A stretch of 1,334 bases of DNA, taken from Escherichia coli (GTDB lineage: Bacteria; Pseudomonadota; Gammaproteobacteria; Enterobacterales; Enterobacteriaceae). The notes below the pieces were generated by a model, which searched no databases, was not told where the DNA came from, and saw only the letters and a program-made list of their open reading frames with translations. The DNA lies in NCBI RefSeq assembly GCF_003334305.1, contig NZ_QOWS01000058.1. One strand, given 5' to 3'. Each line of letters begins with the position of its first letter. Within the stretch, counting starts at the first letter, position 1. Shown here piece after piece: positions 1 through 1,334 of this stretch. The position numbers and the translations under genes are program-made.

Positions 1-1334
1 CCGGACGGGCTTCGCAGCAGCCGGGAGTATGATGAGAAGGGAAGGCTGACGGCGGAGACCTCGCGCAGCGGTGAGACAACGCGGTACAGCTATGATGACC
101 CGGCGAGTGAGCTGCCGACAGGGATACAGGACGCGACGGGCAGTACAAAACAGATGGCATGGAGCCGTTACGGTCAACTGCTGGCCTTCACGGACTGCTC
201 GGGGTACACGACGCGGTATGAGTACGACCGGTACGGTCAACAAATCGCCGTTCACCGGGAGGAAGGCATCAGCACTTACAGCAGTTATAACCCGCGTGGG
301 CAACTGGTCAGTCAGAAGGATGCGCAGGGGCGGGAGACCCGTTATGAGTACAGTGCCGCAGGCGACCTGACAGCAACGATATCACCGGACGGTAAACGCA
401 GCACCATCGAATATGATAAACGCGGGCGTCCGGTGAGTGTGACGGAAGGCGGTCTTACGCGCAGCATGGGGTATGACGCTGCCGGGCGCATCACCGTGCT
501 GACCAACGAGAACGGCAGCCAGTCCACGTTCCGGTATGACCCGGTGGACAGGCTGACTGAACAGCGCGGTTTTGACGGCCGGACGCAACGTTACCACTAT
601 GACCTGACCGGAAAACTCACGCAGAGTGAAGACGAGGGGCTTATCACCCTCTGGCACTACGATGCGTCGGACCGCATCACGCACCGGACGGTGAACGGCG
701 ACCCGGCAGAGCAGTGGCAGTATGATGAGCACGGGTGGTTAACCACCCTCAGCCATACCTGTGAAGGCCACCGCGTGTCGGTCCACTACGGCTATGACGA
801 TAAAGGCCGCCTGACGGGTGAACGGCAGACGGTGGAGAACCCGGAGACAGGGGAGATGCTGTGGGAGCATGAGACGGGGCATGCGTACAGCGAACAGGGG
901 CTGGCGACCCGTCAGGAGCCGGACGGTCTGCCGCCGGTGGAGTGGCTGACGTATGGCAGCGGTTATCTTGCGGGGATGAAGCTGGGCGGAACGCCGCTGG
1001 TCGAGTACACGCGGGACCGGCTGCACCGCGAGACGGCCCGTAGCTTCGGCGGGGCGGGCAGTACAGCGGGGTACGAACAGGCCACGGCGTACACCCTCAC
1101 AGGGCAGCTACAGAGCAGGCACCTGAACCTTCCGCAGCTTGACTGTGACTATACGTGGAACGATAACGGACAACTGGTGCGCATCAGCGGCCCGCAGGAG
1201 TGCCGGGAGTACCGTTACAGCGGCACGGGAAGGCTGACGGGCGTCCACACTACGGCAGCGAACCTGGATATCGATATCCCGTATGCGACGGACCCGGCAG
1301 GAAACCGGCTGCCGGACCCGGAACTGCACCCGGA
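1..1334 (+). CDS. Rhs-family YD-repeat protein, conserved core region (internal fragment; 5' and 3' ends lie outside the window); polymorphic toxin / T6SS-associated effector family
   Basis: Seen in sequence: frame +1 (codon 1 = nt 1-3) has no TAA/TAG/TGA across all 444 codons. The translation contains at least 10 canonical YD-repeat units (consensus roughly Y-D-x-x-G-R-L-T/I) at about 21-residue spacing, plus several degenerate ones, and GC-rich codon usage (ctg, ccg, gcg, acg, cgc, ggc). Established knowledge: this pattern is diagnostic of the Rhs / YD-repeat family, and from memory the translation is clearly homologous to, but not identical with, E. coli K-12 RhsA-type core sequence. The specific paralog cannot be assigned without a database search, so no gene symbol is given. 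Confidence 0.95.
25..831 (+). repeat. Protein-level tandem YD-repeat array within the Rhs core (about 21 codons / 63 nt per unit; degenerate at DNA level)
   Basis: Y of the YD (or YD-like) motif falls at codons 10, 31, 57 (degenerate RYGQL), 75, 96 (degenerate YNPRGQL), 117 (YS), 138, 158, 179, 200, 220, 241 and 265, i.e. nt 28, 91, 169, 223, 286, 349, 412, 472, 535, 598, 658, 721 and 793. Spacing is 20-24 codons between canonical units. Two further units lie at codons 384-392 (YTWNDNGQL, nt 1150-1176) and 404-413 (YRYSGTGRLT, nt 1210-1239). Confidence 0.8.

Follow-up and report, generated by a model that had tools for sequence, protein, structure and literature searches.

Rhs effectors carry YD repeats that build a closed beta-cocoon; an aspartyl autoprotease cleaves the toxin, which stays enclosed (PMC10684867; PMC8765631). 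An N-terminal plug, which in Tse5 is the DUF6531 domain (PMC10684867), seals the cocoon, and a PAAR or PAAR-like N-terminus attaches the particle to VgrG, so that a type VI secretion system (T6SS) can deliver it (PMC10684867; PMC8765631). A GC-rich core joined to an AT-rich tip is the classic composition pattern of Rhs elements, and the Escherichia coli rhs cores are grouped into the subfamilies rhsABCF, rhsDE and rhsGH (Jackson et al. 2009, PMC2935791). Here we describe a stretch of E. coli DNA of 1,334 nucleotides (nt) on contig NZ_QOWS01000058.1 (assembly GCF_003334305.1), analysed as a whole and called the window below. In E. coli, knowledge of Rhs core genes dates from the 1980s, and the gene to which the window belongs is itself already known, annotated and ordinary. 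We are highly confident that the window makes up the middle third of an rhs gene on the chromosome, of the clade I "RHS element core protein" type with an h1 tip and the partner dsORF-h1, likely of the rhsG/H group, at the K-12 rhsE locus.

We observed that the window was 100% identical, in frame, to nt 1474-2807 of a 4263-nt coding sequence (CDS) in E. coli AMSHJX01. The locus, numbered L001 1-13300, corresponds to positions 2585792-2599100 of NZ_CP030939.1; the CDS lies at L001 7528-11790 and the window at L001 9001-10334. The product is WP_053266815.1, an "RHS element core protein" of 1420 amino acids (aa), and the window encodes its residues 492-935. Beyond the window, the gene extends ~1473 nt upstream (start ATGAGCGGAAAA...) and ~1456 nt downstream. 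The initial annotation had taken the window for an internal piece of a much larger gene, with both ends beyond it and a size of around 1,400 aa, and this was borne out. We found no evidence against assigning the window to the inside of a gene for an Rhs core.

Profile searches of the window translation gave the same answer. Pfam RHS_repeat (PF05593) matched nine times, eight of them at E ≤ 0.001, and NCBIfam TIGR01643 (YD_repeat_2x) scored 122.6 bits (cutoff 15.8) over six stretches, in agreement with the YD repeats reported earlier. Direct inspection showed ten YD dipeptides and nine Y[DNES]xxG motifs, spaced mostly ~21 residues apart. NCBIfam's equivalog "RHS element core protein" (NF041261; 1261 model positions, curated cutoff 2000 bits) aligned the window's 444 residues to model positions 488-931 (E = 2.3e-274). 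The window alone scored 913.5 bits, under the cutoff because it makes up 35% of the protein; the full-length protein scored 2649.3 bits over model positions 1-1261. The TIGR03696 (Rhs-associated core) model, proposed in the initial annotation as a check, had no match within the window. This miss is positional and no refutation, because the domain sits at aa 1183-1260 of the full protein (83.2 bits, cutoff 32.5). The label "Rhs core" is correct as the term is used for E. coli, where it means the conserved, GC-rich core; the window covers only ~35% of it, with no N-terminal plug, autoprotease or toxin.

The internal segment of the rhs core CDS fills the window (1..1334, plus strand) and comprises codons 492-935 of 1420 and 2 nt of codon 936, with start and stop outside. 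A dense block of YD (RHS) repeats with a period of ~21 residues runs from 28 to 825 (plus strand; window aa 10-275) and would correspond to beta-hairpins of the cocoon wall. It holds eight overlapping or adjacent PF05593 matches, at aa 10-49, 55-89, 96-132, 138-173, 158-195, 179-208, 200-233 and 241-275. The following part, 826..1155 (plus strand; window aa 276-385), is repeat-poor; it carries no Pfam repeat and aligns continuously to the shell of Tse5 as well as to the RHS_core model. A further YD repeat is found at 1156..1257 (plus strand; window aa 386-419; PF05593 E = 4.6e-4), with a YSGTGR motif at aa 406. At the DNA level we found no tandem repeats in the window. Its direct repeats were short and degenerate (14-28 nt) and matched recurrent YD-repeat codons; the repeats are visible solely at the protein level. 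A search of the window for structured RNA returned no Rfam family at E ≤ 1.

On re-translation of nt 1-1332 we counted no stop in 444 codons of frame +1, as claimed in the initial annotation, compared with 14, 29, 18, 13 and 3 stops in the other five frames (the 3 in frame -3). The window's GC content of 62.7% gives a stop probability of 0.030 per codon and ~14 expected stops; the probability of none over 444 codons is ~1.2e-6 from base composition. Only one of 5000 dinucleotide-preserving shuffles of the window left any of the six frames fully open, and the earlier view that chance was an improbable explanation was upheld. GC content by codon position in frame +1 was 0.63, 0.50 and 0.75 (GC1, GC2 and GC3). 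In codon alignments, differences from K-12 rhsD numbered 85, 62 and 163 at codon positions 1, 2 and 3, and those from K-12 rhsA 94, 71 and 229; the ratio of nonsynonymous to synonymous substitution rates (dN/dS) of frame +1 against the K-12 paralogues was 0.11-0.21. The upstream frameshifted rhs copy was left out of this comparison, since its frameshift makes a codon alignment meaningless. These data show that frame +1 evolves as coding sequence.

We then placed the window in the architecture of the full protein. Its N-terminus (MSGKPAARQGD...) was near-identical to that of K-12 RhsA-D. Outside the window, the DUF6531 plug (PF20148) was found at aa 49-126 (E = 3e-19), and YD repeats ran from ~aa 330 onward. 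Pfam RHS (PF03527) matched close to the core's C-terminal end (E = 2e-14) and, together with TIGR03696, spans ~aa 1157-1260; the TIGR03696 domain corresponds to the aspartyl autoprotease that follows the repeat region. Homology to other rhs cores stopped at gene nt 3752, and identity to RhsD and RhsA beyond aa 1300 was 6-14%. The C-terminal variable tip (L001 11281-11787; aa 1252-1420) is AT-rich and 169 aa long. It is followed, 12 nt past the rhs stop, by a gene with the RefSeq name "RHS element protein dsORF-h1" (L001 11802-12251; 149 aa). GC content was 63.5% in the core, 35.8% in the tip, 32.9% in dsORF-h1 and 52.6% in the flanking housekeeping genes.

Structural homologues of the window were identified by a phmmer search against the PDB. 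The best match was chain 8cp6_B of Tse5 (E = 1.2e-62), in which query residues 7-438 aligned to shell residues 395-824. It was followed by 8qja, a VgrG-fused Rhs (4e-47), 7q97, Photorhabdus Rhs1 (4e-44), and 8uy4, Tse15 (9e-38). By homology, the window would form the central wall of the beta-cocoon, a part that is predicted to be structural and non-catalytic. Within this wall we also noted a HExxH-like string, HETGH (window nt 868-882, plus strand; window aa 290-294; full-protein aa 781-785). Chance alone would yield about 0.03 strings of this kind over the window; the counterparts in K-12 RhsA-D are HETKH or HETRH, a conserved feature, and the aligned Tse5 residues read VEHSH. The string probably just accompanies a conserved beta-strand. 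That HETxH is a functional metal site, tied for instance to the unexplained N-terminal self-cleavage, is a remoter idea; the site is not conserved in Tse5.

If the E. coli protein works as its homologues do, its ~1200-aa core would fold into a closed beta-cocoon, with the 444 residues of the window in the central wall. The aspartyl autoprotease would cleave the C-terminal tip, which would stay enclosed. The particle would be mounted on the VgrG spike through its N-terminus and fired by the T6SS into neighbouring bacteria. In the target bacterium the tip would act as a toxin, with dsORF-h1 as its cognate immunity protein. For the E. coli protein we infer secretion, self-cleavage, tip toxicity and dsORF-h1 immunity by analogy with these systems.

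The tip carries a HEFAH motif at aa 1344, from which it may be a zinc metallopeptidase, and it matched Pfam Peptidase_M91 weakly (E = 0.021). A single-sequence AlphaFold model of the tip had a predicted local distance difference test (pLDDT) score of 36 and was unusable. Neither dsORF-h1 nor the small ORFs (open reading frames) upstream had an NCBIfam match. Of 5426 complete E. coli genomes, 1083 had the tip and dsORF-h1 as a pair, each a single time. That the HEFAH-bearing h1 tip and dsORF-h1 could make up an undescribed metallopeptidase-type toxin/immunity family is a tentative proposal, and we hold it to be doubtful.

We assessed the distribution of the window in the same set of complete E. 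coli genomes by megablast. The window was present in 3712 of 5426, at a median of three places per genome. Identity at the best place was at least 99% in 560 records, 95-99% in 271, 90-95% in 1654, 80-90% in 71 and 60-80% in 1163. All top matches were annotated as "RHS element core protein". Eight genomes with a 100% identical window were inspected, and the local architecture was the same in all eight.

The gene order in AMSHJX01 was yncH, vgrG, a frameshifted rhs, an IS1 remnant, ISAs1, a hypothetical gene and DUF3969, followed by the window's rhs, dsORF-h1, an ISAs1 remnant, pptA, yddH, nhoA, yddE and nar. The two small ORFs upstream of the window's rhs encode a 150-aa hypothetical protein and the 64-aa DUF3969 protein, and ISAs1 is the H-repeat. 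The upstream rhs copy is of the RhsD/E type; in strain 258E its partner bears the name dsORF-e4, and the copy itself carries an inserted IS3. The equivalent K-12 site holds a truncated rhsE pseudogene. In AMSHJX01 the K-12 rhsE locus is an expanded tandem island, and its two direct-repeat cores are 77% identical.

Nucleotide identity over the window was 71% to K-12 rhsA, rhsB and rhsC, 77% to rhsD, 77% to the upstream tandem copy and 82% to the surviving part of rhsE. Because the core diverges from both the A/B/C and the D/E groups and because its partner is named dsORF-h1, the gene most likely belongs to the rhsG/H core subfamily, as an RhsH-type element. The core is at about the same distance from each of the other two subfamilies. 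The basis for the label is the name of dsORF-h1 together with the divergence from rhsABCF and rhsDE, not the original ECOR reference sequences of RhsG or RhsH.

The proposed mechanism has several weak points. Pfam PAAR_motif had no match in aa 1-491; the literal string PAAR (aa 5-8) and an AARxxD motif were all that we found there. The Rhs demarcation motif, DPXG-(18)-DPXG (PMC2935791; PMC10684867), is half present in its strict form: in the full protein (aa 1210-1238) the second half reads DPIGL at aa 1234, and the first, 24 residues earlier, reads DEESG at aa 1210. The same half match was seen in all K-12 paralogues and is therefore a feature of the clade, not a defect. The vgrG gene adjoins the other rhs copy and lies ~7 kb upstream of the window's rhs. 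Three of the eight inspected copies (258E, H15 and IGC_RcoliRes_1.1) were 4262 nt long and annotated as "frameshifted". K-12 retains rhs genes without a T6SS. The tip had no match in NCBIfam or PDB sequence searches, and its metallopeptidase assignment is based on one motif and the Pfam match given above.

The frameshifted copies raise the possibility that the window derives from a pseudogenised copy, open inside the window and broken outside it, so that the source strain would have no full-length Rhs from this gene. In all three the lesion was the same: a poly(A) tract at gene nt 121-128, which lies 1.35 kb upstream of the window (L001 7648-7655; same site in L008-L014), had seven adenines (A7) where the intact copies have eight (A8). 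The tract lies within a three-codon insertion (KKK) that is absent from the K-12 paralogues rhsA and rhsD. A7 was accompanied by a different allele of the hypothetical protein upstream and by an ISAs1 copy that is intact. Because of this linkage to other variants in the locus, A7 seems to be an inherited null allele and not the product of random sequencing error; slipped-strand on/off switching at the tract is also conceivable. Some near-identical megablast matches, moreover, were annotated as a shorter "RHS repeat-associated core domain-containing protein".

Against a pseudogene stand the other five inspected copies, which were intact at 4263 nt, and the window itself, which is fully open. 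An 80-nt probe over the tract matched 489 of 578 records exactly (A8), and 87 had a single difference, which in at least one case was a substitution; the frameshifted allele therefore accounts for at most ~15% of copies. We consider a pseudogenised source unlikely. The identical window occurs in both A8 and A7 copies, and an open window is no proof of an intact gene. The earlier designation "real gene" accordingly holds for the five intact copies, fails for the three that are frameshifted upstream, and is probable but not certain for the source of the window.

The gene of 258E also differed from that of AMSHJX01 in its distribution of substitutions, with 35 differences at gene nt 6-996, none across the window and two beyond it. 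This patchy divergence suggests that recombination may have taken place in the N-terminal "clade-specific" region.

A second alternative is that the real gene, or an overlapping one, is to be sought among the off-frame and antisense ORFs on the list. Such ORFs are the sole complete ORFs of at least 60 aa in the window: 71-370 on the plus strand and 342-527, 382-732, 739-1026 and 1108-1329 on the minus strand (99, 61, 116, 95 and 73 aa, respectively). The initial annotation had described an ORF list of 61-116 aa with none in frame +1, which was accurate, and had given the ORFs ATG starts, which was not: all five begin with GTG. Frame +1 is missing from the list because the gene ends outside the window and the listing omits ORFs that run past either end of the sequence. 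None of the five ORFs had an NCBIfam match or an annotation in any of the eight inspected genomes, and each lies wholly inside a CDS with strong support. A gene of 63% GC is expected to contain long antisense ORFs, and frame -3 has just three stops. These ORFs are by-products of 63% GC and codon bias, and a genuine gene among them is very improbable.

We give as little credence to a third alternative, that the window belongs to another class of YD-repeat protein, such as Tc toxin B/C, Gram-positive WapA-type wall-associated or teneurin-like proteins, and not to a T6SS-type Rhs. YD repeats and the cocoon fold are common to all of these, and teneurin-like chains gave weak PDB matches to the window (E = 1e-23 to 5e-9). 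The best PDB matches, in contrast, were all T6SS Rhs effectors, and the full protein matches the NF041261 equivalog, has a DUF6531 plug and lacks a beta-propeller. The window is also 100% identical to an E. coli chromosome, near a vgrG gene. The PDB ranking, NF041261, and the genome identity and context effectively refute the Tc, WapA and teneurin class.

The last alternative, a chance open frame in GC-rich non-coding DNA with incidental YD strings, draws on the lower stop frequency at 62.7% GC and on the three stops of frame -3, but it has negligible probability and is ruled out by the composition and shuffle statistics (P ~1e-6; 1/5000), by profile matches down to E = 2e-274, by the codon-position bias and substitution pattern (dN/dS 0.11-0.21), and by the annotation of the region as CDS in thousands of genomes.

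The window as the interior of an rhs core gene carries limited biological weight, as hundreds of RefSeq genomes have this very sequence annotated and structures of homologues have already solved the cocoon mechanism. The putative h1 toxin/immunity pair and the A7/A8 polymorphism both lie outside the window. The window does hold a methodological lesson: a track restricted to complete ORFs overlooks genes longer than the window and displays nothing but spurious ORFs in other frames. When a window is short, the first thing to check is therefore whether a frame is open from end to end.

We compared the gene with described systems, from the most distant to the closest. Tc toxin TcB/TcC and the teneurins have the YD-repeat beta-cocoon fold in common with it (PMC8765631). 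They differ in their capping domains (beta-propeller, FN-plug) and delivery routes, the teneurin cocoons are empty (PMC8765631), and there is no family-level kinship. Among T6SS effectors, Tse5 of Pseudomonas aeruginosa (8CP6, PMC10684867) has a homologous YD-repeat shell that aligns end to end with the window, although it is distant in sequence. The Tse5 group shares with the full E. coli protein a DUF6531 plug and a C-terminal aspartyl autoprotease plug, and the short N-terminus of the E. coli protein is putatively PAAR-like; the N-terminal fragment of Tse5 is comparably short and described as "PAAR-like" (PMC10684867). Photorhabdus Rhs1 (7Q97), P. protegens RhsA (PMC8765631) and Acinetobacter Tse15 (8UY4) are further solved or characterised homologues. 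Unlike the E. coli protein, this RhsA and Rhs1 possess a long N-terminal region containing transmembrane segments. The toxin tips also differ from the E. coli h1 tip, Tse5-CT being a pore-former and Rhs1-CT an ADP-ribosyltransferase (PMC10684867).

Within E. coli, K-12 RhsA, RhsB and RhsC (rhsABCF) have the same architecture and 69-70% aa identity over the window, but their cores are more diverged, their tips are different and they occupy other loci. K-12 RhsD and RhsE are closer. They have the same clade I architecture, rhsE marks the same locus, rhsD has 77% aa identity over the window, and the window's full protein is almost identical to them in its first 40 residues and around the autoprotease. 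They differ from it in a core that is ~20% diverged, in another tip and in being without the three-residue poly(A) insertion. The RefSeq proteins WP_053266815.1 and WP_047675370.1, both named "RHS element core protein", are the closest of all, with 100% nt identity across the window and no difference from it.

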